Positions 31,395-61,822 of a stretch of DNA of 64,000 nt are shown here, one piece after another. The stretch's first letter is position 1. The number at the start of each line of letters is the position of its first letter. Origin of the DNA: Trichoplax sp. H2 (lineage: Eukaryota); NCBI GenBank assembly GCA_003344405.1, contig NOWV01000016.1:372001-436000 (forward strand). The letters run 5' to 3'. Under the pieces are notes generated by a model. That model was not told where the DNA came from and searched no databases. It saw only the letters and a program-made list of their open reading frames with translations. The position numbers and the translations under genes were made by a program.

Positions 31395-32081
31395 CAGACA
31401 TACTCTGGGAAGAATTGCAATGTACGTTTTGAAACATAGTGAGAATATAAGAACTGATGATTATGGTATGAATAGAAATAAAATGACTCTTGTCTGGATA
31501 ACTTCTATGTAAATCAATGTATAATGAAACCTTTTACATTTTTATATTACTGTGAATTGTAAATTACCGTAGTATGAAAATATTATAATAACAGAAAATT
31601 AATAACTCNNNNNNNNNNNNNNNNNNNNCATACTGAAATTAATAGTTATAATAGGGAATGCAAATCATCTGCTTACAGTTCGAATCATTGTGATTGTAAT
31701 TTACTTATGGTAGACTGTAAATTATCATGGAAATTTTCCGTGATAGGACATATCGTAATCTGACTATTCTGTATTAGTCNNNNNNNNNNNNNNNNNNNNA
31801 CGTGGTTCAAGGAATTGACTTATTGATCGTATATTGCGTTATCTTGTTGCAAAGCTGTTTTGTGACACAGACATACTCTGGAAAGAATTGCAATGTACGT
31901 TTTGAAACATAGTGAGAATATAAGAACTGATGGTTATGGTATGAATAGAAATAAAATGATTCTTGTCTGGATAACTTCTATGTAAATCAATGTATAATGA
32001 AACCTTTTACATTTTTATATTACTGTGAATTGTAAATTACCGTAGTATGAAAATATTATAATAACAGAAAATTAATAACTC
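31395..32081 (+). repeat. 214-bp near-identical duplication (31395-31608 and 31868-32081) spanning two 20-N assembly gaps
   Basis: The copies differ by 3 substitutions; N runs at 31609-31628 and 31780-31799. Confidence 0.9.
31800..31867 (+). mobile_element. 3' end of an LTR of the 18082 family, truncated by an assembly gap
   Basis: gcgttatcttgttgcaaagctgttttgtgaca (31836-31867) matches gcgttatctttgtcgcaaagctggtttgtggca (18631-18663). Confidence 0.75.
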
Positions 32082-41699: not shown

Positions 41700-44070
41700 G
41701 ATCAAAATTAAATCTATCATTTTGGTACTTACTATAGTCTTAACAAAAGCTAACGATCTCAACAAGCTTCAATATAGGCACGATTTCTTGCAAATGATAT
41801 CTTTACATATAGTTGCTTATTTTCCATTTCATCATACTTAAGTGATGCAAAATCTTACTATGACATCTAGTAATTCGTTTAGATAGTCTAAGCACCAATA
41901 TCTTTTACTAGGAAGATTAAATCAAATCAATCACATTGCTACTTACCATAGTCTTAGCTAATTATTTTAGCAAGCTCCAAAGGTAGCACGATAGTTTTCA
42001 GCTAGTATCTTTATATATATACAGTTTTTATATATTTTATTTCATCATACATACGCGATACCAAATCGTCATGGATGTCAACATTATATAGTAAGATCTA
42101 TTATATAATAATAGTATCGCTCAATCTTTAGATGTCTTCTGATATTATAATGCAAGATGCTAGAAACACATTTAGTAGTACTCTGGATAAAGGTTCTATC
42201 TGATACTCTACCCTGTGATATATACCGATCACGAAGTTCCAAATTTTAGAAAAATAAGGGCTTTATTGAATCTTATACAAAGATTTACTACTCACAGCTG
42301 TACTCTAGCCGAATACTACCTACTAAAGACTTCTAGAACGAACTAAACAGAATAATCTTAAGTTGCATGCTTTTATACTTTTCGTAGCATTCGCAGCTAC
42401 AATCCGCATTGCAACCTTTTACCTTATTTTACACATAGTTAAATTATTCTTAGTAACACTATTCTACTGCGGACCATCATTAATCCGATATGGATACGAC
42501 TACAGTATTTATGTTGACATAATTCACTCCAGTCAAAGTACAATGAATTAACCATATCCTAATATAGATTTACGGTTCTATTTTTACCTATAACCTTATT
42601 AGTAACTCAACACCTTACTGTATATAGTCATCTGTACTCTAGCATAGAGTCTATACCACTACAGTCTATAGTTATGGCTACCAAATATCTCTTAGGATAA
42701 ATATAGAACTTACGCTACCGTACATTGTACTAAACACGGCTAACAGTCTACAATCACAATACTAAGTTACATTACATACCCATATACCAAAATTTTAATC
42801 AAATCAATCTTATCTTTCCTGGACTCATATTTACCATGATCTATGATCAAGATTAAAACAAAGAGCCGAAAAAATTCTAGAACACTAGTAACAAGACGGT
42901 ACTCAAAGTATTATTTATATACAGTTGCTTACTTTCTATATTACCTATCCTTTACAATATCACCACAAATTGTTAATACAATCTAATGTGACTGGTTGAA
43001 TCATGCCAATATCACTCAACCTTTAAATTTCTTCTGATATTATCATGCAAGAAGTTATAAATATATATAGCAGTCCTATTGATTGAGAGTTCTATCTGAG
43101 GTTCTACATATCTACCCTAGATTGTGATTGAATCAATCTTATCTATCCTGGACTTCTATTAACCACAGCCTATGACTTAGATTAAGGCTAAAGATTTAAA
43201 CAAACTCTAATATAGTAGTAACGCGACTGATTTCAAAGCATTACTTATATAAAGTCATTTATTCTCTCTTATATAATCTATCCACTACTATATCACCACG
43301 AATTTCTAGCGCAATCTAATATGAATAGTTAAATCATACTAGTATCGCCTAATCTTTATTATCTTCTGATATTAACATGCAAGATATTACAAACACATAG
43401 TAGTCCTATAGATTAAGAACTCTATCTAAGATTCTACCATCTACCTAAAATGTGATGGTCTAAATCAATCTTATCTATTCCGGACTGGTAATCATTATAG
43501 TTTATGGTCTAGATTAAAATTAACGATTTGAAAAACTCTAATATAGTAGTAACACGACTATTTTCAAATTATTTATTTATATACGGTTGCTTATTCTCTG
43601 TTTTATCATCCACGTAATATTATATCACCACAAATTACCAACATTATGTGTCACTCAATTTTTAAATTTCTTCTGATACTGTCATGCAAAATGTTACAAA
43701 CAGATATAGTATCACTCTTGTTAAAAAGGGTCCTATTTGAGGCTCTATCGATCTAAGTTATGATTGAATCAGTTTTATCTATCCTGAACTTGTATTTACC
43801 CTAGTCTAGACTAAAATTAACGATCTGAACAAACTCTAATATGGTAGTGGCACGACTGTTTCCAAAGTTTTCATTTATGTACAGTTGCACATTTCCTATT
43901 TTATCATCCATATAATATTATATCGACACAGATTACTAATATAATTTAATAGGACTGGCTAAGTCATAGCAGTATCGCGCAAGCTATATATTTATTCTGA
44001 TATTATCATGCAAGATATGACAAATCCATACACCGATGATCATTTATGATTATAGTTCTATCTAGATTTA
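41700..44070. repeat. Degenerate tandem repeat, ~310-330-bp unit, about 6 copies
   Basis: Recurring landmarks: ttctgatatt.tcatgcaag near 42136, 43030, 43362, 43670 and 43995; aatcaatcttatct.tcc.ggact near 42801, 43131, 43462 and 43766; older copies at ~41700 and ~41920. Confidence 0.8.
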
Positions 44071-46876
44071 ACTTTATCTTAACCAGAAGCATAAAATTAC
44101 CATCTATCTAATAATACACTTTAATTATCTAGTGCGAGTAGATAATTGCTACTTGATTCCCAGAATCCATTTTTTCATTCTTATCGCTTTTAGCATATGA
44201 TATTTTAAGTCCAAGCTAGAGATATTAACAAGCTGATTAACAGCATGATTGTTTTTAAATTTCACGTTATTATGAAGTTAATAATTGATAGACATTTTAC
44301 TTGATATGCCATATCATGACGTGTGCATTATAGCGTCCATGGCAGCTTTGTTATAGTCAATCATCAGTTTATTGTTATCACGATCTCGTGATGAAAAATA
44401 ATTGATATTATTGACAAAGCATCGTTATTGACAACCAAAATAATGATGGATTGTCGATGGAGTACAAATATAGTACTACATGTATTCATATTAGTATATA
44501 TTGTAATATCATGACTGACGTAAATTCAGATTGGTTTTTCAATGCTGGAATTACTTTATTGGCAGTTGTATGGGCAGTCTCGAATAGTATTTTCCTATTG
44601 CAAGTCAATGTGAATTTTTCCGTTATGGACAATCAGGAAATGATCACACTACTTCAATTGCTTTCCAACTGAAATTGGGTTGTACTGGTTTGAAAATTGA
44701 AATTAACGCCTATCTTTCTATACTAATAACCGAACTGGACACATTTGGTCATTCTTTTATACAAGCAATTAATTCTTCTTTCAAATCAAACAGTTAAGCA
44801 GTTGCTAATATTACTAAACGCATGACTTATTTCATTTCTACAAAGTACTACGTCAATAACCACAGCAATTATTTTCAATTTTGGCTGCTATAATATAAAT
44901 TATATCTGTCTATCGTTATTTTGTTGATGATCGACCATCGAGTTATCCTAGAGGCAGAGAAACAAATAGCTATAACTAACTATACTTAATCTTCCTATAT
45001 TGTGCTACAGAGCTATTGATTCTATTATTTCAACTTGAATTGTTGTTGTCTATCCCTATAATGTGGAACAAAACAACATGATGGATTTAATATGTCGTCA
45101 ATTAATTAATCAGTTATTGAAAGCAAAGACGTTTTCTAATAGAATGTCTTCAAATTATATCAACAAGAAATCAATCTAGAATAAATTCCTCCAATCGAAC
45201 CGATCGGTATAATATGGCCCCATTTATATCGGCAACTATTCTATTCTTTATCGTTTCTCAACGTAACTAGAATAAAATCAAAATTCATAATAGTTGCGTA
45301 GCTACTTATAGGGGCTTTAAATCAAACCAACAATTGAAATCGAAGCTCACGTACATCACAACCTATTTTATTTATGTTCTCACACAGTGATTTCATTATC
45401 TGACCACTAATTGCACCGATCGATGTATTCACATCCATTTAATACCAGTGTTCTTATATCCGTGTCCTATTTCAAGAATCATTCCTTGAATTAAAACTCA
45501 ACAAATTGATGCTTCATATATGTCATAAATTCTATCGGTCATCCTATTGCTATCACAATTTTGATTATCTTAATTTAAAAATAAGTCTTGATATATCTCA
45601 ATTAGTCGATAATATGATAATTTCATTTAGATAATTTAAATCATGTCCGTTGTTCCTAGATAGCAATATCAAATCAATTGAAAATATATCAATGAGCAAT
45701 GGACTCCAGTAAAGTAGTCTATACGGAAATCATCTTAGCACTAAATCAACGAATCGAACGAAATCTATCCACATACAAAGTCTGTGATAATTTTACTAAC
45801 TTTCATCGTTTCTTAATAATGCTTGTAGAAAACAAAACTGATCATAGTAGAATGCTTTAGTTCAAATTTTTGTAACTTAATATCCTGTATAATTCTCTTT
45901 AACAGAGTTACTCTGCATGGAATTATTACCAGCTATATGCAAACTCTATTCGTTTCAACTGTTATTGATAACGAATAACCACGAAAATCAAATTCACATT
46001 TAAGATACAAGTATAGTTTGCTTTTCATAGCTGAAATGATTAAAATAGAAAATTATTCATTATTCTAGCCCATATCAGCTTAAATTAAGGCTTACCGGTA
46101 GTTACAGCGACGCAGTACGTATTCTATAACTTACACCCTTTTCCCAATAACTTAATGATCCTATCGCTGTGGCCTTTCAAGGCACCACATTATCAATTAT
46201 CAAGTTATCATATTCAATGATTAGATTATTATTTTAGCTTTCAAATCATGCTACTATCTCATAGATCCAAGGGCAATCTCTTCTTCTGATATTTTGGTAT
46301 ATTATTATTCGCTTTTCTATTGGCTTTATCAGGTGATAACTTATCGCCTCTTCATCTTACCTTCGACTTTGCAAAGTCTTAACCATATTCTTTCTAGAAT
46401 TAAAATAATTCAGATTTTTAAGTGATAGTCTATCTTACTAACTAATGGCATTGCTATTATTCCATCAATAACAATTTATTAATCCCTGGCACGAATCTTA
46501 GGCTTCATTTTTTTACTATAAATTTAACCATTGGCATGAAAAATATGATATCTTTTTTTATCTATTAAACAATTGAAGAGTACATAAGCTTGCACTTTAC
46601 ATTCACAGTTTTGCTTCTTATTGATTTAACAACGTTAATTTATAGCTATATTATAATGCGATATTTCAAAAATCAGCAGTTGTCATTTTATCATGATCAG
46701 GAACCGTTATCAATTGCCGACAGGTTAATATTTTAATTCTTTATTTCTTAACAGTCATATCCAAACATTTCATACATCCTTTTCTCTCTCTTTATCCTGT
46801 AACTTTGACAAGTCTCGCCATAAGTCTTTAGATTACATGCTCTATTCTTAAGACTTTTATTGTTAATTGATGATTT

Positions 46877-46960
46877 TACGGTCTAAAATTACGAAACGAT
46901 CGAATCAAGATTTTCGTATTTTTTTAATAATTCTACGGTCTAAAATTACGGAACGATCAA
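46877..46960. repeat. Short direct repeat, period 57
   Basis: tacggtctaaaattacg(a/g)aacgatc at 46877 and 46934. Confidence 0.8.
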
Positions 46961-47121
46961 TCTTTTGATTTTTCAACCCTCTGTAATAGTGTGTTGGTTC
47001 TTATTATGTTCGGGGCTTTGCTCTAGATTTGATCCTTTCATTTACTATCATTCATCAAAGTTTCGTAACTACAATCTTCGTTATCATTACTAATTCTTGA
47101 AACTACATTAAGATTAAATTT

Positions 47122-47545
47122 TGTCATAATTTTACTCAGTATATAACTTGATTATCGAATAAAGTTATAACAATTCCTCTACGTGAGGTATGGTAGTTCC
47201 GAGAATCAGCACATCTGGACTTTCCTAATATAAATTCCACAAAAATTTGTGAATCTTCCACCTATTTCTTCTTACAGGATAGATCTTGATCTCTACCAGA
47301 TTTATGCCTTCATAATTACTCCTCTATCAAGTAGCCTCATAGTTCAGCATATTTGATTTCAGCGAACCATACATCAAGAAAAATTTACAAACTATAAAGA
47401 TACTTATTGTACAATGTCGCTGACCATGCCATGATGATCTGATTAAGTTATAATAATTTGAATTGACGCTAGACCACTTTATAACTTATTCCAGTCACGC
47501 TTTGAGAATCTATATTATATCGTAAATTGACAGGCTTCCGTGACA
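47122..47545 (-). mobile_element. Possible diverged solo LTR upstream of the CLIP gene
   Basis: On the minus strand it starts TGTCACGG and ends aagttatatactgagtaaaattatgaca; ATTT flanks both sides. The 4-bp match is AT-rich and weak. Confidence 0.35.
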
Positions 47546-47951
47546 ATTTAAGTTAAAATTAATATAAAATCTTGTGCCAGTTCTCAACATCAGGTTTACA
47601 AGAATAACTGTAGGGATTGATATTTATAATCATCTTTTCATTCATTTCTTTAAGTATCGATTAATTATTATTATGATTAATCTATTTACAGTAGCATAAA
47701 TCTCTAGAATAGCTATATATGCCATGATCAACATTAAAAACTAATGGATATGTTACTTTCCTAGAAAGTTTCTTATAATTGATGAAAAATTAATGAATTA
47801 CCATCCTATAAAAACTTATGATTGTAATTAATGCATCATTAGTTCATCATAAATATTCTTTACCTTACGTAGTGCATTATTTCATACTTGTAGTTAATCA
47901 ACCTCGAAAATCTGATAGATTCAGCCACTGATATAGGTAAGTGGTGTTAGG

Positions 47952-50900
47952 ATGCCGGAATTAAAGCCTAAAAATGATAAACCAACCGTTCACAATCTAT
48001 CTCCCTTGCCTGTCTGTTCATTAGTAAGTTTCATGCTTCAATATCTTAATTCTACAAGAATTTAGAGCAGATTCTCTGCTACTAATCCTAAGTACTTCAA
48101 TAATTATCGATATAGTGCAAAAGTTCTGGAGTGACGCGCTTTAACTTCGACTGTGCGAAATGCATGGAGAGGTTAAAGAGGTAAGCATAGGACAATTATC
48201 GATTCTTACATGGGTAACTTTACGTAGATAGCGAATAGCTAACCATTCAGAAAATTCTGATAAAACTTTTCTGGGTTCTACTTCTAGCTCCAAGACAACA
48301 ATATCTGAGCTATTTGCTATTTTACGTATATGGACTTCTTCGGTGCAGCAAAATATTTCAATTATCCTGAATCTTGTAAGTACATCTTATGGGATAAACT
48401 TCTGCAGCATTAATTAGACATATTAGCTATAATAAAGTAAATGCAACACCCTATTCTTGTCAGTAATTGTTATATATACATTATTAAACAGCTATCATTT
48501 ATACTCTAAAATATATCAGTAAAAAGATTTCAGGAAACTGCGTTCTTAAAGAGATGCATTCATAATCGGACATTATAATCTACAGATCTAAAACTAGGTT
48601 ACTCGAAAGACCTGATCTAAGACCAATATTAATTCATATTTAGCACGAATGCAAATACAGTCTTAATGATTATGATAGCGTGTTATTATAGCTACATGTA
48701 TATGTAATTTCTTAACTAATTTACTATATAATTGAAAACATAAAGATTTTCCAACGTGGCGCAAATATTAACGATCGAGACGGACTAACTGATTTAACTT
48801 TATTACATTACGCCTGTAAAGCCGGAGCAAGTATACTTAACATTAGATCTATACTTACAGCTACCTAGCTGCAGTACTTGATTGCCATTATTACAATTAT
48901 TAAGCAATCTGCATATCTAACCTATGAATGAAATATTCTATTTGAACTAGATCATATTGGGGACGAAAATATTGCGTCAAAGATCATAACTGATCTTATA
49001 ACTAAGGTAAAATAAGAGTCTTTGTAAATGACTACCTCTAGATTGACTCCGTGATGGACAAGAGCAGTCTTATACGCTATGGCTAAACATGGCTATCACT
49101 CTTGTACCCAAAATTTCAGGATAAACGTGCTAATCACCAAATATTTTATTTTATAATCATACCGATAATATCAATAGGGAGCAGATGTTACAGCTCGAAG
49201 CCGATGGACCGATATGACGCCGTTACATTATGCATCATTCTTTAATTGCTCAAACGTAATCAATGTATTAGCGAAGACGCTAACTTCTTCAGGTTAGCTT
49301 AATTATATTCAATCTGGCCAATTACGGCATTACTACCTAATATTCTCGATATACATTACCCTGTAACTAATTTTACTCTCTCCGGCATAAAATATCCTGT
49401 TGCTAAATGCAATTTTTACGTAACTTTGATGATTTATGTCTATTACTAATATTTCTATAGAAATAAATGCTAAATGCTCGAGCTTTGACGATGGTACCTC
49501 TCTTCATATTGCCGCTAACAATTTATGCAGGGGTGCAGTGATAGCCCTGGTAAAATATCTATCCTTTCATGGCTAAATTTCATTTACTGAATTTAATAAC
49601 GAAATATATGCTCAAAAACAGATAAAATAATATATCTCATCCAATTATTCTAATAAATGTAGACATTGCCCTTACCCTTTTCTATCTTACGTTTATAACA
49701 CAGTTAGGTCATGGTGCTAATCCTAACATAACCAATAATTTAAATCGTTCAGCATTGGAAGTTGTACCTGATGGTAAGAGAAAGCTCAGAATAACTTTTT
49801 ATAAACTGAGCGGAAAATAACACTTGCTCTATTTATTTTTATGGATACCAACTAGTGGTCGCATTAGGTTCACAGGCTGAAGCTGTCATTATCGCTAAAG
49901 ACATTCAAGAAATGCTGCAATGTGGAAATGATATTGCGAAAATGGTAATAATAACAAGTGTGAAGGGATCTAGGATGATAAAGCCGTTAAAGCTACATCA
50001 TAATGGACGACCTTAGCTCATTTACTTACAGATTTATTAGATGATCTAACGGTATATTTCGATTTGTCTTGTTCTCGCTTAATATTAAGGCTAATTGATC
50101 TCTCTTTATTTTTCTAACAAAATAGAAGACGATCCGGGATAGAATCCGATCACAAGAACGTGAGCAGCAAAAAATTAATAAAGCATTTTCTCCATTGACA
50201 ACTCAGGTCAAGTTAATGATATGTAGATAAAAAAGTTATTGGAGCACTACTAGATACTTAATTGCTTTTCAAGTCATAAATAGGACTAAACCAAGATGCT
50301 ATATAAAAATGAAACTATCGACTAATGACTATACCACTGAACGAGCAATATAAGACTTATATAATTCTAATCTTTAATATTCTGTAAACAGGTGTTGAAA
50401 ACGGATATGAATAAGGAAGTTAAGAAGAATGAATATCAAGAGAAGGTTGTAATACTTTTTATATTCATTAAGGCAGTCAACCTATTTATAAATCCATTTG
50501 AGTATTAAGCGTTAATTTGTTCCATAAAATTTTTCATAAAAGTTCTCATTATGCTACTGATCTGGACATTGAATAATAATTCCTCAGATTTTGCCCAACT
50601 CGAATAATAGCCGAGATCAGACAGAAAAATTAAATGGAATTAATCACAGTATATCGCCTAATCACGTTAAGGTAAGAATTCAATCGAATTTAAGAAAATT
50701 TAAGGCTAGAAAGCCACTGTGTTACTTGTAATAAACTATAATCGGTTATAATTGTGATAAATTCACTATTTACATTTGAAAAATCTGGTAAGTATGCTTG
50801 TTCTTAACGTTGACAGTTGAATAAGTAAACTATCCTATTTTCTTTATTTACATTTCTATTTATTCATTTATTTTATATCTTTCGCTAATGTAGAAAAATG

Positions 50901-53900
50901 AGAACAAAAGTGATACAGCTAATTTACCATCCATAGCTAATAATGTTACAAAACTTTTCCACATTGACGTGAAAAGTATGATACTTTTAGATAGCTCTTC
51001 TATTACTGTCTACTTCGTATTATTGAAAACATAAATAATAAGACAGTATAACTTCTAAATTGATATGGAAAAGTAGACAACAGAAACTAAATCTTAGAGA
51101 AGAAATGATCATTTATGTTTTCATTTAAACTACACTTACGTATGTTTTTACTGAATTGAAATTCAATATAAATTTTTAAACTATCACAAAAAGTAAAAAT
51201 AATATAGTACTACCCTGCATCTGCTTTATATTACATAATACAGTATTTCGATAGCATTCATCACCTAGAGACATTAAAAAAAGTAAATTGAGAAAAGGTG
51301 TTAAGAAAAATGATTCATTAGAGCAGGACGAGGTTGATATAATACTTAACAATTCTAATCATACTAAAATTGAATATAGATGCTTAAAGATAGGAAATCA
51401 TTAAATGGTATATTGTTGTGTTATACAGGTTACAATTATACAATAGCTTAGATAATTTATTATAAATTTATGATCATATATAGTACCTTTTAATATAATA
51501 AATATTTATGACTATGTCTTAATTATAGTTATCCATGTATGCGATATTTTTATAATTTATGCACTGTCCAGAAATTTATATCTTATTATTGTTTAAATAT
51601 AATACTCAATTTTGCTCTTTAGACAACCAAGGACGGTAAAAAAAGTAAATCTAGGGACAGCAACAAGAAAATTAATTCATTAGATGAAGATGAGGTAGGA
51701 ATAAATTACTCGCTTATTCTCACATTAATTTGATTTATTAGTGCTTGTATGCAAGTAGAAAAGGACAAAAAATTTTTTGAATTCTATTTCGTATTTAATT
51801 TAATTTCCTATCTTAGGTATCGCCTAAGGATGGTAAAAAGAATAAGTCTAAAGATAGCGTTAAGAAAATCGATTTATTAGATCAAGATGAGGTCAATACC
51901 AAAATTATATATAAAAGCTTGAATTAAATATCGCTACAGAAAATGAATACTTTCAGAACATGTATTTGATAGCCTAATTAATTTCTTCTCTTCAGATATT
52001 CCCTAAAGATATTAAGAAAAATAAATCTAAAGATATTACTAGGAAAATCGATTCATTAGATCAAGAGGGGGTTCGTGTAAAAGCTAACTTTCACGTCTAA
52101 ATTGCTTTAGAAGTACCATAATAAATTATTGGTACGGTAAACGATGAAAAGCATTGAAATAATTTAATATCTTTCTCAATAGGCTTCACCCAGAGAGAGT
52201 AAAAAAAACAAATCTAGAGACGGCAGTAAGAAAGGCGATTCATTAAATCAAGACGATGTAAGTAGATTTAGGTTGGCATTTTCACATTTAATTTAATTTC
52301 GAGTCATCTCAGTTGAGCTACATTGGTTATAAATAGTTTCACTTTCAGGTGAATGATAGAAAATACTTCCAAGAACTATTTCCTATTAATCATTTAATAT
52401 TTAATTTCCATTCTTCAGGTATCGCCCAAGGGTAGCAGAACAAAGTCTAGAGATACTGTCGAAAAAATGGATTCATCAGAGCAAAATGGGGTATGCTGAG
52501 TTTATTCGCTTCATACACGTTTAATCAATTGGATGCCGTAGCTGGAGTGTTCTAATCAATTTTGAACATGATGACAGAAATTGCCTCAATCTCCTTTTCA
52601 TAATTTTGTAGACATCGTCCAAGTTGCCTCCTAACGGTAGTAATAAGAAAATTAGTGATACAGTTGACAGAATTTATTCTTTTCATAATCAAGATGAGGT
52701 ACAGATGAATTATCTAATTTTTCCTCATGGTTTTTTCATACCTATTCTACTAATTATATACGTGCTAGCTTGTGATGAAAGATCTAGCCACAAAGTAACT
52801 GCTTTCATTATCAATCTATTGCTGCAGGAAACTCATAGGGATAGAACTACTGATTTTAGCAAAGGAATTAAGTCTTTAACTCAAAACGATGTAAGACGTT
52901 TAGATTTGCATTCCAAGACTAAATCATAAGATAAAATTTTCATAGAGTAAGAAAAAAGAGATCTATAGTAATAAATTTCTTGTCCATATCGATTAGATCA
53001 ATGTAATGCAATCATTCAGAATCCTATAGAATTCAATATTACGATTAATATGTTAATATCCATTACAGATATCGAGTGAAATACTCCAGAAAGAAAGCAA
53101 ATCAATCAGAACGATCGAAAAAATGCACGAAATGAATTCACTTGATGATGACGTAAGAAAATGTCTATTCTCGATCACTTTATTACTTATTCATGCTTCA
53201 ATAAAAGAATTAAAGTAGAGTAAAATTTCAATACAACGAATGGGAACATTGAATCTATTTGATGATCTTTTCCTATAGATTGTAACTGATCTATCTCTTA
53301 GTGAAAGCAGTAAGAATAAATCTAACGAAACCGTGAGTTGAATTCAAGCCTTAACCTAAGATCGTATTCAAACATATTTTACTCTCACTAAACTTGATTC
53401 AAATGGATTACATCTTGGACTTTGATATTATACAAATGATTTTCGATGCTGATAATCCTTACTTGAAAGAATTACATGGTAGTTTTTACGTAATAGATGC
53501 GCTATATGGTCGCAAACTTGGGCTCTAACGAGCTTAAATACTGAACTTTGATAGCTTAATAATGCTGTCATCTAGTTTTGGCATAAAGGAGCTCAAATCT
53601 TAGCTTGAAAATGCATAAACATACTTTAGCTACCATTATTCCTGGCTTTCGTGAGCTTAAATTCTAACCTTTGAGAGCTAAAAAATACCACCCAGAAACT
53701 TTGGTTCGAAGAAGTTCAAATCTTAACTTTTGGGATGTAGAACTAACTACTTTTAGTGGTGATCAAGCCTGATTTTAATGAGCTAAACTAAAAATAAATC
53801 AAATCTTAGACTTTGAAAGTGTAGAAAAATGTTTAGCTGTCATCAAACCAGAATTCCAGGAGTTAAAACTCTAAGGCCGTAACATTATAAGAAACTTTTT

Positions 53901-56900
53901 CGGCATCGTTCAACTTGGCTTGGCGAAGCTTATTTATTAGACTTTAATACAGTAAAACTGCTTTTAGCTCGTCATTAAAACTTACATTAAGAGAGTTTAG
54001 GCTATAAATTTTGATACCATATCTTATTGCTTTACCATTGCCACACTTTGTCCAAAAATACTCAAATCTTAAGCTTCAATAGTTGAAAAATACTTTCCAC
54101 TGTTCCCAAAATTGGCTTAAAGAACTTCGATCTTTCGATTTTGCATAAACATTTTCTACCGTAAAATTTAGCTCGGAAGTATTTAAATCTTATATTTGAA
54201 TGGTAGAAAAATACTCTTTACTATCACCAAATTGGCTTGAAGGACTTTAATCATTCGATTTCGTATAAATATTTTACTGTCTGAAGTCTAATTTAGACGC
54301 ATCAATTCGTAGGCTTTAAGGACTTCAATCTTTTGATATCGTGTAAATATTTTACGACAGCAAAATATAGTTCGAAAGTATTCAAATCTTTGGCTTCAAT
54401 AGCTGAAAAATACAATTACCGTCGCCAAAATTGGCTTGAAGAACTTCAATCTTTCGATATTTCATAAATTATTACTTTCGCAAAATCTAGCTCGAAAGAA
54501 TTCAAACCTTAGCCTTCAATATTAAAGAAATACTCTTTTCTATCGCAAAATTTGCCTGAAAGAGCTTCAATCTTTCGATTTTTCTTAAGCATTTAACTGT
54601 TGTATAATCTAATCTGGAAGTACGCAAACTTTAGACTGCAATGATAGATAGATGCACCACATATCTTGCTACCATTCAATTTGGCCTGAAAATGTTCAAA
54701 TCTTAAATCTTGAGCGCAGAGAAATATATCTTTATGCTTATAAAATTTGGCTTGTAAACCAGTTTTTTTAATTTATAATACCATACCGTAAATATTAATA
54801 GTAATGGAATATTCTTTTATATTAGTTTAATATACTTCCTAACTATGATTTCATGACAGGTCCAGTCGTCATCTGAATATAAGGTTACTAAAAGAGAAAA
54901 ATCAAAGCAGTCATTGAGGAGATTGAATTCACTAGATCAAAGTGATGTAAGAATACCCTAAATTGTAATGCTTAATCATACATAGCCTATTTATAATATA
55001 CCTTTAATGGCATAAATATGAATTGCGTCACCATGATAGAACTGAATTAGTCATAGATATGCGATTTTAATTTATATTTGTATAGAGAAAGAAGTCGCTT
55101 GTCGATAAAATTAGATCCATATCATTCGTTAAGGTCAGGAAAGGAATTTATTTTCTACTAAAATTTAAATTTCTTGATATAACTAGCCCAATAGAGTCCT
55201 TACGGCTAAAACTACACAACCTTTATTCAATTACTGAATATTGTGATTCGAAATTCAATAGAATTTTGATAGTAGCCAGGATGACTCTCCATCTGATTCG
55301 GGAATAGAACGTAAAGTTAAAGTAGGTCTTCTATTCTTAGCTATTAACTTCATTAATTTCTTAATTTAAGATATTATAAACAAAAATTGGAATAGTATTT
55401 ATAGGCTGATTTCTTCATATCAGTTCTTAGTTTAGAAAATCGCTAAATAGGATATCAAAAGTCTATCTCTAAATAAATTCGATCAAATCCTGTCCCATTC
55501 CTCCGGTAGAATCTCTTAATTTATAATAATGGCTAGATCTATTTCAATTTCTTTCCTCAAATAATTGAATCCAATCCAGTTTCAAGTAAATTCTTTAAAG
55601 CCACCCCAGTTTACAATAACCTGCAGATAAAGTATTTTAATAATGATACCTTGAATGATCGAATTTAATTAAACTGCAACTAATTTTATCACACAGCTCC
55701 TAGTTTAAAAATTGTTGATAGGAAATTTTAATGCTAATTACCTTCGATATTGCTCTTAAGTAACAAAATCTAAAATTTAATATTTATAATGTTGCTTCTC
55801 GAATGGTTGGATTTAACTAATCCTAAACGAAATTTTTACTACTTCTTTTCTACTATCATATTGATAAGTAGAAAATATTAAATGTCGATTACTTAAATAA
55901 CGAAATTACATTAACATTACTTTGAACCATTTCGTAGACTGTAATTACAAGTTAATATTATTAATTAATAACGACAGTACACCGAAATGTATGAGACATT
56001 TATGATGAAATGTTCGCCATATTATATCAAAAATGTGGCATGGCTTCAATATCACCTCGATAGATCGCTTAATATATGAATTTCTGATAACTTCAGATTT
56101 TATATTTCTAAACATTTAATAGAATACTGAATTTTTACTATCTTGAATCATGATAGAAACGTGAAAGCAGTAGAACTCACGCCAGTAAAGAAGAAGATAC
56201 GGAATCAAGTCATAATGTAATTCGGATATATAGGATATAAATTAATAGCATATTGCATGATATACGTACATCTGCATGAGTATACGACTAAGTAACTGCT
56301 ATTAAAAGTTTTAAAACTATCAAAGTCTAGTAATATATATTAGATTCTGATGAGTTACTGTATGCTAGAGTTAGCTAGTGTACCCTTAAGAATATTAACT
56401 AGACACTTATCTTTCAGAAACGCGATAGTAACAAAACCCGTTCTAGCAAAGAAGAAGACATCATATCCAGTAATAAGGTTGATAAGATATGTACTGAGTA
56501 GTAAAGCAATTGCTATACTATATATTCAGTATGCACTGCTAGGCAATAAATTGAACAGTATTTATAAGCCATCAAACTTAGTAAAATAAAACATCTATTA
56601 TGCATACCTACTTCAGAAACATGAAAGTAGTAAACCTCATACTAGCGGAGGAGACGACAGTCTATCCAGCAATAAGGTGGAAAGGGTATCTTCTAAACAA
56701 TTTATCAATTTCTATGCTATAAATTAAATATATAACGCTAGATAATAGGTTGAACAACATGTATAAGTCACCAATCTTAGTAACATAAGACATGTGTTAA
56801 ACGCTCTCTACTGCAGAAACATGAAGGTAGCAAAACTCAAGTTTGTAAAGCAGAAGATAATACATCTAGTAGCAAGGTAATTATTTTTGTATGATAAATA

Positions 56901-59900
56901 GTAAATTAAAGTATTATACATTGGATAAATGTTGTTGAATAACAAACTTAGGAGTTTTAAAAATTATCCAGTTTAATCAAAGAGATGCAAGTATGTAAAT
57001 ATTAAAAATTATGGATGAAAAATGTATCTATTACAGAAACATGAAAGTAGTAATACTCATATCAGTAATGGGGAAGACATCATATCCAGCAGTAAGGTAG
57101 GAAAGCATAACCTAAATAATACATTATTACACACCGAGTATATATGGAGTGCCTTCCTTTTTAATAATGTACTGAAATCGTCTAGAGAACCTTTTATTTA
57201 AACCTTCCTTTTAATAATGTACCGAAATCGTCTAGTAAAAATTAGTATATATCGTTAAAAAATGTTAATATGCAAATTAAATGAACATATCATAGAAACA
57301 TGAAAGTAGCAAAACCCACACCAGCAAAGGGGAAGATAACGCAACCAGCAATAAGGTAGAAAAACACGTTCCAAATAACAAATTATTATTCACTCAGTAT
57401 ACGTGTATAATGAGTGTGTTTCTTCAAATAACATACCAAAGTCACTAAACATTAACATAAATCATATTAGAAATATCAATATAAAAATTAAACGTACATA
57501 TTACAGAAGCAAGAAAGTAGCAAAACCCATACTGGCAAAGGTGAAGATAACACATCCAATAATAAGGTAGGAAGCACATTCTAAATAGCAAATTATTGTA
57601 CACTTAGAATATATTAAGCGTATTCCTTTTAATAAAGTGCTGAGGCCATTAGTATAAATCACATTAAAGATGCTAACATATAAATTAAATGCATACATCA
57701 CAGAAGCGTGAAAGTAGCAAAGGTCTTACTAGTAAAATCGACGACAATCTATCCAGCAGTAAGGTATTTACAATGTCATAACCATATGACATAACGCTTT
57801 TGCAAATATGAATGACATAAAATGATGCATACAATAAATTCTTTACCTCATTCTTATACATTAAAAAAATAGCTTTACATAAAACATACAATAATTAATG
57901 CAAAAATATGAAATAAATTTCATGTTTTCCTTTTATACAAACTAATACTCAAAGGTAAATTTATCTTTACTCATTTTAATTGCAGAGGAGTTCTAAGGAT
58001 AAGATTGATCGGAATCGTAAATCAAGATCAAGTGGTGATCGTAGATCGTCAGATAAAAAGGTTTACAATTAATTAAAATAGATTAATACGTCAGTTTTAT
58101 ATCTAGATCTTGGAAAATTTAAAAAACTGCAGCAGTTAAATGAATTTAACGATTCTCAATTATTCCTGGTATTTGCAAATTCGATGTTCTATTTGAGCTC
58201 GCAAACGTATTAGCATTTAAATATAAATTTGTAGGATATAAAAACAAGAAATTAATTTACCAATATACGTATAATATGCTTTTTGGCTGATACTAGTCAA
58301 GTTTATTAATTTAAATTTATGATACTATTAATAATACTTGCGTACTTGTACGTACTAAATGTTATTGCACCATTCTTGATATCAAAAATCTACAGCATAT
58401 CTAGAATTTCTATGTTATGTATATACACTTTTAGTCATTAAAGGAAACTATTTTGAGCTTCGATTTCAAGCCTGGAGATACTGTTCGTAGTGGTAGCAAA
58501 GTGAGCTTAATTTTCAAATTTTCAAATTTTCCAAAATATCTTCATATGAAGAGCTACTGCGTTAAAATCTTTAAGCTATGAATTTTTTACACTATATTTC
58601 ACACCACTTTTGGCTAAAATGATGCTAATATCAACTAAGGTCGGCAAGTTATGCTATTTTGGGAGGACAGAATTTGCCGATGGAATATGGGCTGGTATAA
58701 AATTAGATGAACCTATCGGTAAAAACGATGGTACAGTAGATGGAGTAACTTACTTTAGTTGCAAACCTAAGCATGGTAAGATGTGAATGAATATGCAAAT
58801 ATATTCTAAGGTCAACAAGGCACTCGTCAATTTGTTGTAATTTAGGTATTTTGGTAAATGCGTCCAGAGTACAGAAAGTAACGGACCATACAACTAGTGA
58901 TAGCAATCAGTTTTCCGATCTTATACCTAACCCTTCGGAGATAAAGAATATTTTCGAAAGTGCAAGTGATTCTTCGCAATTACAATCCAATCCTGACGAA
59001 ATTAGCGTATTAGACCTTTTACAACTGAAATATGAATCATCAAAAATTAGGGTAATGCGACTTTACAATCCACTCATTTACTGTAGAATAGAATAAGTTC
59101 TAGAAATATGAGATAAGACATTCAAAATAAGATTGTATAATTAGGATATAGACTGTCATAAGCATTTCTATTCTGCCATTTTAGATAGGAGACCGAGTCA
59201 TTGCGTCCGATGATAAACCAGGAGTAGTTCGTTTTGTAGGAAAAACTAAATTTGCTAGTGGGTGAGTAAATTCTCAATATTGCGATTGCTGGTCAATCAT
59301 TAGATAATTAAATCTTATTGATCTTCTTAACTGATTTACTTCATGAATATTTATTAAAATACTGATATTGGAAATTGAAATTAAATTGAAAAGTACCTGG
59401 ATTGGGATTGAACTTGATGAAGAGCTAGGTAAGAACGATGGTTCGACGGCTGGCGTTCGCTACTTTACTTGTAAGCCCCGCCATGGCGTCTTTCTTCCAC
59501 CATCTAAAGTTATGAAGTATGTCGATAGCATCATTATTCCTACTGCTTTCATTTTGGGTATTTTTACTAAATATGAACAATTTAGAGGATATCTAGATTA
59601 GCATGTATTAACTTATTAATCGGTGTATCTATAATTTAGGGATTTAAATTACTACTACGCAGCGAAATTACAGAAAGAATCTGACTTACAAGCTGCTCAA
59701 GCTGAAAAAGCCCGATTAATTAAAAATGCTAACTTGCCAGATGAGAATAAAAATAGGTATACCTACCTTTATCTCATTTTTCACTCTATATATCAATCAG
59801 TACATTTGATTTCATGACTACGAAATTGTTGACTAAAAGACTGAACTTTGATACTATGTAATTATGTTAAAACATAGCAGTATTTGACAAAACGACAACC

Positions 59901-61044
59901 TTTTGATTTTACCATACTCATTTTGTACTTACTTTAAAACGAAACTGTACATATTACGAGAAAAGTATACAATATACTGTAATTTTAAATCAAGCATCCA
60001 TTAGAAATTTTTACGCTCGAGGTTATTGGAATCGAATTTAGACGACATATAAAACTGATTTCAGGACATTTCAATTCTTGCATGCTGTTCCAATAAATTT
60101 TTTATCACAAGTTAAATTAGTTGATTCTATGGTGTACTATAAATTTATCAGCTAGGGAATTTAAAACCTAACAAAGAACGCTATGTTTTCATATTGGATT
60201 AAAATTATCAATATGCAACCTATAACCCTATTTTAATCGATAATTTAAGAATTTTTTTATCCACTATGTCTGTGACAGGGATGTTTCTGCTTCGAAATCA
60301 AGTATAAGTGACAGCGTTGATACGGTGCTTAGAAATAGTAAAATCAAAAGAGAGAGTGATGAAAAAGCGATAGCAATGAATCTAAAGCTCAAAACCAATA
60401 CCAACAATTCTTTAGGCAAATCTGACCCTAACTCTTCCAGTATTACTGTCACAACGGTGAGTTATTATGGTCAATTTCAGCTGCATTGGTAATTTTCTAA
60501 ATTAGAAATTGTATTTCATCGTACAGGGAATGAGTGCATACGTCAACAGCGACATTGGAATTATCAGATTTATCGGTTATGTTGAACCCCTGCATGGAAA
60601 TTATCTCGGCATCGAGTTACGCAAACCAAGTAAGTTTACTGCGGAGTAGCCAGGAAGCCTATTGCTACACTGATAATGATAATTCATACTAAATTTATCT
60701 GCATCAGTTTAATTAATTTCACTTACAACGCTATTTTAGAGGGAACCATGGATGGCACATATGAAGGCAAAAAGTACTTTGCCTGGTATGATATTTAGTT
60801 ATAATCCAAACACGCGCAAATTCTTTCTAGACACAATAATTTATCGTAGGAAATGTGATATACGCGTATGTTAATTTTTATCTGTGTTTAAAATTGAAAA
60901 ACTATTCTGTTAACTCTCATGACGATCATCTTAAAATTTTGTTTTTACTTTGTCTTCTTTAGTAAACCCAATCATGGTCTTTTAGTTAAGCCAAGTGCCG
61001 TTACAGTCCGGGGAATTAATGCAGCAGAATTAATTGAAGAATAG
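47952..61044 (+). CDS. CLIP4: CAP-Gly domain-containing linker protein (CLIP3/CLIP4 family): ankyrin repeats, ~590-aa repetitive linker, three CAP-Gly domains; roughly 45 exons
   Basis: N-terminal exons: [79 protein letters not shown]-Gly motifs [17 protein letters not shown] (~58.7 kb), [13 protein letters not shown] (~59.4 kb) and GIELRKP.GTMDG (~60.6-60.8 kb). The C-terminus [27 protein letters not shown] is CLIP4-like. Confidence 0.88.
51255..54946 (+). repeat. Coding exon array A in the CLIP gene: ~11 related phase-0 exons (54-87 nt)
   Basis: Exons at 51255-51332, 51623-51694, 51817-51891, 51996-52070, 52183-52257, 52419-52490, 52612-52698, 52828-52890, 53069-53152, 53279-53332 and 54860-54946. 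All are AG/GT-bounded, multiples of 3 and stop-free; consensus approximately [25 protein letters not shown]. Confidence 0.85.
53500..54760. repeat. Degenerate ~60-bp minisatellite with ~120-bp A/B higher-order period inside a CLIP intron
   Basis: aaattggcttgaagaacttcaatctttcgat units (near 54109, 54229, 54428, 54549) alternate with aaaatctagctcgaaagtattcaaatcttag units (near 54164, 54363, 54483, 54605). Confidence 0.75.
56157..57763 (+). repeat. Coding exon array B in the CLIP gene: eight 60-nt phase-0 exons
   Basis: Exons at 56157-56216, 56418-56477, 56617-56676, 56817-56876, 57037-57096, 57296-57355, 57507-57566 and 57704-57763. Each encodes 20 aa, consensus [20 protein letters not shown]; flanking introns are also homologous. 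Confidence 0.92.
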
Positions 61045-61822
61045 TCTTCCATTACTTATTAAGAAGTATATGACAAAATACCAACTTTTAACTAAGAAAC
61101 TAAATTTTATGCGTTGCAATAAATATAGAAAAAGCAGTCTTGAGTCAATATTCTAATTCGATATAACAGTAGTATTGTGCAGTATATGGCTAATTTATTA
61201 ATTTAAGATAGCATACCATATGCTTGAATATAACCGTATCTATATTTGCGAACTACGCGGTCAAATAATCTTATACGCATCATTCTTTCAATCTTACCCT
61301 TCTATTTTTACTAATTATATTGCAATATTCTAATTTCAAGGATATCATTATCTGCGCTTACTTGCTATTTCATACAATCATTCCGTTGTACTAATTCTAT
61401 ATACTACGATTCGTCGTCAATTTATAATATCTTTTCTCTTAATGGTGTGTTCTCGCTTGCTTATACATATATATTATAATTCTCATTTATTAAAATTGCT
61501 TATTGTATAAGGCCATGTTTGTACAATGTAAAATGTATCGAGTACCTGCCTTGACATTATATAGTTCATTGTAAGGCACTGGAATATTTATGAATTAATA
61601 ATGTTTATAATTAAGTATCTATCTATTATCACTAGATTCATTAGGTCTCGAAATAAAGTTAAAAGAAAAAATGGTTCTTAGCTAGTACTATATTGTAGGT
61701 AGTTTTACCATTAACAGCTCAACAATATTTATATACGCGTATTTGCTAACGTTATGAAATTATACGATAAAAATAAATTAAATCACTTGTATTATGACAT
61801 AATCCTTTTGCCTGTATTGAAG

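Follow-up and report, generated by a model that had tools for sequence, protein, structure and literature searches.

A CLIP3/CLIP4-type gene whose linker is encoded by 24 consecutive mini-exons is found on the + strand of a 64,000-nucleotide (nt) stretch of the Trichoplax sp. H2 genome (contig NOWV01000016.1, positions 372,001 to 436,000; hereafter the window). The linker joins an ankyrin-repeat region to three CAP-Gly domains. We consider it about 75% probable that this linker grew by duplication, that its mini-exons are included together in the transcript, and that it acts as a long flexible tether. A first-pass annotation of the same DNA had proposed that the length and charge of the linker are set combinatorially by splicing. 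In the following, the exon map, the origin of the exons, and the evidence from spliced RNA are described, together with the other explanations on which they bear.

Exon Map of the Gene

The coding region runs from the start codon at 47952 to the final coding base at 61044 and consists of 43 exons, with a coding sequence (CDS) of 3498 nt, including the stop codon, for 1165 amino acids (aa). These positions were obtained using a script that threads the deposited protein RDD45439.1 through GT/AG introns; the translation of the joined CDS is the whole protein, and all of its 1165 residues are encoded by the window letter for letter. A search of the protein collection with the neighboring, non-repetitive exon at 58848-59051 as the query returned a single protein at 100% identity, which is RDD45439.1. 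The gene and its mini-exons are already in public annotation. Judged by titles and abstract openings, the gene is not the subject of any paper found on Trichoplax CAP-Gly proteins or on tandem exon duplication and exon phase, and the latter papers do not concern Trichoplax; judged by title, it is not the subject of any paper listed on exon skipping in Trichoplax.

The linker block consists of model exons 10-33 at 50126..58060 (+ strand), which are 24 exons of 48-87 nt, each of phase 0-0, and which encode residues 244-788, that is, 545 aa. The first-pass annotation had counted about 26 exons and about 590 aa here. In a mechanical scan of the + strand for stop-free segments that are bordered by AG and GT and have a length divisible by 3, all 26 of these exons were recovered between 50126 and 58060, and their lengths sum to 1779 nt, or 593 aa. 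The earlier figures hold for the open segments in the DNA; RDD45439.1 carries just 24 of the 26, contiguous and in order, and lacks those at 50894-50968 and 51255-51332, both of which lie inside a 951-nt intron of the model. One donor also differs, as the model ends the exon at 56617 at position 56685 (GTATCT) where 56676 (GTGGAA) had been noted, which adds three residues (VER). The segment at 50894..50968 (+ strand) is open and has AG..GT borders, but it bears no resemblance to the exon families described below and is unsupported.

The uniform phase of the block is real and far beyond chance. Model exons 10-34, which include the exon at 58435-58500 next to the block, form a run of 25 consecutive exons of 48-87 nt, all of phase 0-0, as had been claimed for the linker from the sequence. 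This phase is absent from the gene's 16 other internal exons (25/25 vs 0/16, Fisher p = 1e-11), just 2 of which have a length divisible by three (Fisher p = 3e-9).

Origin of the Mini-Exons

Both features expected of tandem exon duplication were found in the block: neighboring exons are similar and have homologous flanking introns, and the exons are symmetric (25/25). Two exon families were distinguished on the + strand. The core of family A comprises model exons 13-17 at 51623..52490, which encode about 25 aa each and show an inter-copy DNA identity of 71-80%. Family B comprises model exons 25-32 at 56157..57763, that is, eight exons spaced at 199-261 nt with a DNA identity of 66-83%, within which RNA joints were also found; seven of them are 60 nt long, corresponding to a 20-aa unit, and exon 27 is 69 nt long in the model. 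The introns beside units 29-31 can be aligned, as can those beside units 26 and 27, and the introns of neighboring units are partly alignable, which indicates that the duplicated unit is an exon together with its intron. Exons 18-20 and 22 have a C-terminal tail of the S-L-D/N-Q-D/E type in common at the protein level only, and they may be older copies.

The linker would thus have grown via tandem duplication of exon-plus-intron units, giving two families, one with a 25-aa unit present about six times and the other with a 20-aa unit present eight times, besides older and more diverged exons. Since a tandem duplication persists in frame only when the exon is symmetric, the run of 0-0 exons is explained without any regulation of splicing, and the uniform phase would be a signature of this origin. 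By the same argument, because tandem exon duplication requires symmetric phases, symmetry alone is no evidence of regulated skipping. The use of uniform exon phase as a sign of regulated skipping, which underlay the earlier proposal, is corrected here.

The sixth copy of family A is the segment at 51255..51332 (+ strand), which was exon 5 of the linker in the first-pass annotation and is absent from the model. It is open in frame, is bordered by AG and GT, and shows 70-72% identity to exons 13-15; the similarity to family A at 51260-51332 is the sole extra family copy that the window was found to contain. The hexamer at its donor, GTTGAT, is also the donor of exon 26, which is used. This segment may represent a cassette exon that is rarely included or a copy in decay.

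Inclusion of the Linker Exons in Spliced RNA

Sequencing runs containing this stretch were found under two organism labels, and four runs from four studies (X4, X5, X8, and X12) were compared over 48300-61800 as assembled contigs, not reads. The comparison gave 40 joints in total, equal to the 40 model introns within the compared stretch; the joint positions discussed below are from the 15 joints and the 6 loose ends that are listed. GT..AG joints at model introns occur in X4, X5, and X8, which belong to three studies. X12 consists of genome-colinear pieces only, with zero joints, as expected of DNA, and acts as a control.

The joints extend across all three parts of the gene. Six of them, at 48375-49856, connect the exons of the ankyrin-repeat region (model exons 3-9, 48288..49944, + strand, mixed exon phases) in X4, X5, and X8. 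The joint 49944>50126 connects exon 9, of the ankyrin part, with the linker's first exon, the joints 57096>57296 and 57566>57704 lie within family B, and the joint 58500>58640 leads to a CAP-Gly exon; two loose ends are consistent with 50445>50588 and 56477>56617. A depth of 73.5 is common, in X8, to the joints from exon 29 on and to a record of 1520 letters (record 23, exons 36-41), as it would be in one contig. Upstream of exon 36, this record has 566 letters, which correspond to exons 35-29 (517 nt) and a portion of exon 28.

The GT..AG joints across the ankyrin, linker, and CAP-Gly parts indicate that both halves belong to one gene and that the linker exons are transcribed and spliced into the mRNA. 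In spliced RNA contigs, the linker connects the ankyrin and CAP-Gly halves, and in this respect the first-pass annotation was right. It could be supposed that the mini-exons are chance open segments lying between two genes, as AT-rich DNA yields many short open AG..GT segments: the GC content of the window is 27-35% per 2 kb, and the scan gave 296 phase-0 candidates in 17 kb. This supposition is extremely improbable in view of the joint from exon 9 to exon 10 in three runs, the single contig depth of the X8 joints from exon 29 to the CAP-Gly exons, the sequence families formed by the exons, and the exact mapping of the deposited model.

As far as the data show, the linker exons are also included together. 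Among the 15 of 40 joints and the 6 loose ends listed, no skipping joint or loose end was found; all connect neighbor to neighbor, and the agreement between the number of joints and the number of model introns leaves little room for many alternative joints. This bears directly on the proposal that the mini-exons are cassettes, such that the length and charge of the linker are set by skipping subsets of them, as in the PEVK region of titin. Every exon of the block is symmetric, and any subset could be skipped in frame. The 951-nt intron also holds two open segments with AG/GT borders, of which that at 51255-51332, a clear copy of family A, could be a rare cassette exon. The contig cover over the bin containing this copy (51006-51456) has a depth of 0 in X5 and X8 and 1.6 in X4, which is no proof against its use as an exon.

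The splice sites and introns of the block were compared with those in the rest of the gene. Many linker donors had been described as weak, and the strings quoted for them are real; as a class, however, they are not significantly weaker than the others. The mean number of matches to CAGGTAAGT is 5.67 for the linker donors (n = 24) and 6.00 for the gene's remaining donors (n = 18; Mann-Whitney p = 0.15). A pyrimidine at +3, a point in favor of the proposal, is found in 7/24 linker donors vs 1/18 elsewhere in the gene, a difference that is likewise not significant (Fisher p = 0.11). The pyrimidine content of the acceptors is alike (0.64 in the linker and 0.60 in the rest). The introns are short, mostly about 100-200 nt, and of the 24 that border linker exons, 4 are longer than 300 nt. 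In addition, RNA-seq of T. adhaerens is described in PMC6142364 as showing a lower frequency of exon skipping, which also speaks against extensive skipping here. With no skipping among the joints listed, as many joints as introns, donors that are not significantly weaker, and short introns, the combinatorial setting of linker length by splicing is not borne out, and we regard it as unlikely.

Several points weigh against the reading that the exons are constitutively included in a disordered tether. The joints listed are 15 of 40, and the Logan contigs from which they come lose rare variants. In X5, the depth of the linker contig is 30.5, compared with 166.6 for the ankyrin part and 187.9 for the second CAP-Gly domain, which could reflect isoforms that lack the linker. 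The disorder of the linker is presumed from its composition only, and its function is pure inference.

Past exon 11, the depth in X5 drops roughly five-fold, to about 30 from about 167, and at about 58900 it is back up at about 188. No such drop was found in X4 or X8, in which the linker depths (178-186 and 73.5, respectively) are not below those of the flanks (122-176 and 53.8-73.5); these comparisons are a weak measure, as contig depth cannot rank the parts of a gene. The two edges of the drop in X5 differ in kind. The 5′ step is located at the junction of exons 11 and 12 or close to it. The 3′ step lies inside exon 36, at a polymorphic site where the other runs differ at 58898 and 58900, and not at a splice junction. 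The position of the 3′ step points more to a mixture of haplotypes than to isoforms. For the drop as a whole, haplotype mixture, structural variation in the repeat block, and alternative transcripts are possible.

A mixture of haplotypes leads to another explanation, in which the number or sequence of the units differs between Trichoplax alleles or strains, such that linker length varies between genomes and not between transcripts. Units that are 66-83% identical and have alignable introns are substrates for unequal crossing-over. The run in which the linker contig is low and its flanks are high, with the 3′ step at the polymorphic site in exon 36, carries another organism label than X4 and X8, and base differences between runs were found in family-B exons at 56647, 56826, and 56844. 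Nevertheless, no contig with a lost or added unit occurs among those listed, in which the only joints are GT..AG intron joints; no contig falls below 90% likeness, with 134 of 135 reaching 95% or more, and the depth contrast comes from a poor measure. Variation in copy number is, in our estimation, quite improbable.

The two kinds of variation might also be combined, with units gained or lost between haplotypes and cassette units included according to cell type or condition, for which the segment at 51255-51332 is the best candidate. A linker variable at these two levels is doubtful. If it were real, a simple animal with reportedly low exon skipping would tune the reach and charge of a linker between membrane and microtubule. 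The explanation that we prefer for the block is duplication-driven growth with joint inclusion of the exons, and it is this reading to which the protein-level results are related below.

Properties of the Linker Protein

The 545 residues of the linker (244-788) are rich in Ser, Lys, and Asp. Ser and Thr make up 25%, charged residues 40%, and hydrophobic residues 15%, and the net charge is slightly positive. The normalized hydropathy is 0.318, which is well below the charge-hydropathy boundary of 0.431. The description of the linker as highly charged is therefore confirmed, and its hydropathy is low; it is presumably disordered. There are 25 sites of the S/T-x-x-D/E type in the linker.

When 1.84 billion representatives were searched in full with HMMER, no relative of the linker other than itself was found. 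Two word-indexed searches, one among proteins of near length and one among shorter ones, gave none either, although only the 8000 candidates with the most words in common were scored in them, and such a miss is weak evidence. A search of the ESM Atlas with part of the linker gave no usable match. A marginal match at E = 7.6e-4 was rejected, as it is an unrelated protein with KKFEDPLTAN repeats. Within the reach of the word-indexed and full searches, the linker has no detectable relative, in agreement with the earlier view that it is lineage-specific.

A single-sequence AlphaFold2 model of the whole protein was set aside. Its mean predicted local distance difference test (pLDDT) score is 35 and its predicted template modeling (pTM) score is 0.27, with the ankyrin and CAP-Gly domains below 50 as well, such that the model is silent on disorder. 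In the linker of this poor model, helix appears only at residues 244-274 (50126-50445) and 562-573 (55086-55133). Residues 244-274 have the highest pLDDT of the model, 51-68, and what the first two linker exons encode may be the continuation of a helix of the ankyrin region and not disordered.

From its composition and position, the linker would serve as a flexible polyampholyte tether of considerable length, keeping a protein-binding ankyrin module apart from three CAP-Gly domains that bind tubulin or EB tails. The Lys/Ser-rich segment encoded by family B lies directly upstream of the first CAP-Gly domain and, by analogy with the basic serine-rich regions beside the CAP-Gly domains of CLIP-170, would probably add electrostatic affinity for acidic tubulin tails. 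This segment would also offer many phosphorylation sites and, by the same analogy, may be switched by phosphorylation.

Domain Architecture and Relation to Known CLIP Proteins

The domains on both sides of the linker were identified using Pfam. Ank_2 (E = 1.2e-12), Ank, Ank_3, Ank_4, and Ank_5 match within residues 73-211, N-terminal to the CAP-Gly domains. CAP_GLY matches three stretches in the C-terminal half with E = 2.1e-70, in line with the two or three domains expected of this protein type. The first CAP-Gly domain is encoded by model exons 34-35 (58435..58775, + strand) and was placed by reading the sequence; the joint 58500>58640 connects its two exons. The second is encoded by model exons 37-38 (59185..59516, + strand), where residues 925-989 are the best Pfam stretch and where RNA joints were also found. 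The third is encoded by model exons 41-43 (60527..61044, + strand), which end with the stop codon; it was identified by Pfam, and the joints 60455>60526 and 60784>60962 belong to this part of the gene.

The best matches in the PDB are the CAP-Gly domains of CLIPR-59, CLIP-170/Restin, CLIP-115, and CLIP4, with E from 1e-20 to 2.3e-24. The second CAP-Gly domain matches that of CLIPR-59 (1whh) with E = 2.3e-24, and the CLIP4 domain (2z0w) is matched with E = 1.1e-20. Since all of these values are similar, they do not discriminate between the CLIP types. The depositors of RDD45439.1 named it CLIP3.

Vertebrate CLIP4 has ankyrin repeats and three CAP-Gly domains in about 700 aa, with a short spacer between the ankyrin repeats and the CAP-Gly domains. 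The Trichoplax protein departs from CLIP3/CLIPR-59 in that it has three CAP-Gly domains, not two, and ends a few residues after the third, without the C-terminal domain of about 60 aa. The absence of this domain and the presence of a third CAP-Gly domain bring its architecture closer to that of CLIP4. The domain content supports a protein of ankyrin repeats and three CAP-Gly domains of the CLIP3/CLIP4 type, and the CLIP4-like identity proposed earlier stands in this wider sense, by both Pfam and the PDB.

According to PMC2174080, human CLIPR-59 is 547 aa in total and has two CAP-Gly motifs and a C-terminal 60-aa domain for Golgi targeting; a serine-rich region lies between the CAP-Gly motifs, and the activity of the motifs is regulated by adjacent domains. 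On that description, the two proteins are alike in having ankyrin-like repeats before the CAP-Gly domains and a serine-rich region beside them, without a long coiled coil (PMC2174080). They differ in the number of CAP-Gly domains, in the Golgi-targeting end, which the Trichoplax protein lacks, and in the 545-aa linker between the ankyrin repeats and the first CAP-Gly domain. As CLIPR-59 has only 547 aa in total, there is no room in it for a linker of this type, which agrees with the earlier statement that the linker of vertebrate CLIP3 is short.

Other proteins offer partial likenesses. In CLIP-170 and in MAP1B, with its repeats of the KKEE type, repeated charged Lys/Ser-rich motifs lie beside microtubule-binding elements or serve as such. 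For CLIP-170, a serine-rich region is mentioned in PMC2174080. The Trichoplax linker is about 10 times longer and has repeat sequences of its own, such that the likeness is a lead on mechanism and not on membership. The PEVK region of titin likewise has many short, symmetric, duplicated exons that encode a charged spacer of low complexity, presumably disordered. The two systems differ in sequence, host protein, and organism, and differential splicing is documented for PEVK, whereas no skipping joint occurs among those listed for the Trichoplax gene.

Significance of the Linker Block

The gene illustrates cleanly how an otherwise conserved cytoskeletal linker, here in an early-branching animal, can gain more than 500 residues of charged, low-complexity sequence through symmetric mini-exons duplicated in tandem. 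The process itself, tandem exon duplication in a presumably disordered region, is ordinary in evolution; the scale is unusually large, and the gene is an annotated one. If differential inclusion or variation in copy number were true of the block, it would count among the rare tunable spacers of the PEVK type documented outside bilaterians. If neither applies, it is a modest curiosity at the level of annotation, as the gene is already deposited. The unannotated exon copy and the run-specific anomaly in depth deserve a targeted look.

Other Features of the Gene and the Window

The longest intron of the gene is intron 21 (53333..54859, + strand; 1527 nt), which contains a diverged tandem array of about 10 copies with a period of about 120 nt. 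Single genome-colinear records (53305-54889) span this intron in X5 and X8, and two pieces at 53305-54042 and 54097-54889 were found in X4. The contig depth over it is 15-27, compared with 4.5-7.7 for other intronic contigs of the same runs, and could be caused by intron retention, by a transcribed repeat, or by inflation from repeat copies elsewhere.

A scan of the whole window against Rfam gave 0 matches. Upstream of the gene, at 42000-48000, the GC skew is strongly negative (−0.09 to −0.23 per 2 kb), which hints at a minus-strand gene. The stretches at 31609-31628 and 31780-31799, each of 20 N, look like assembly gaps.

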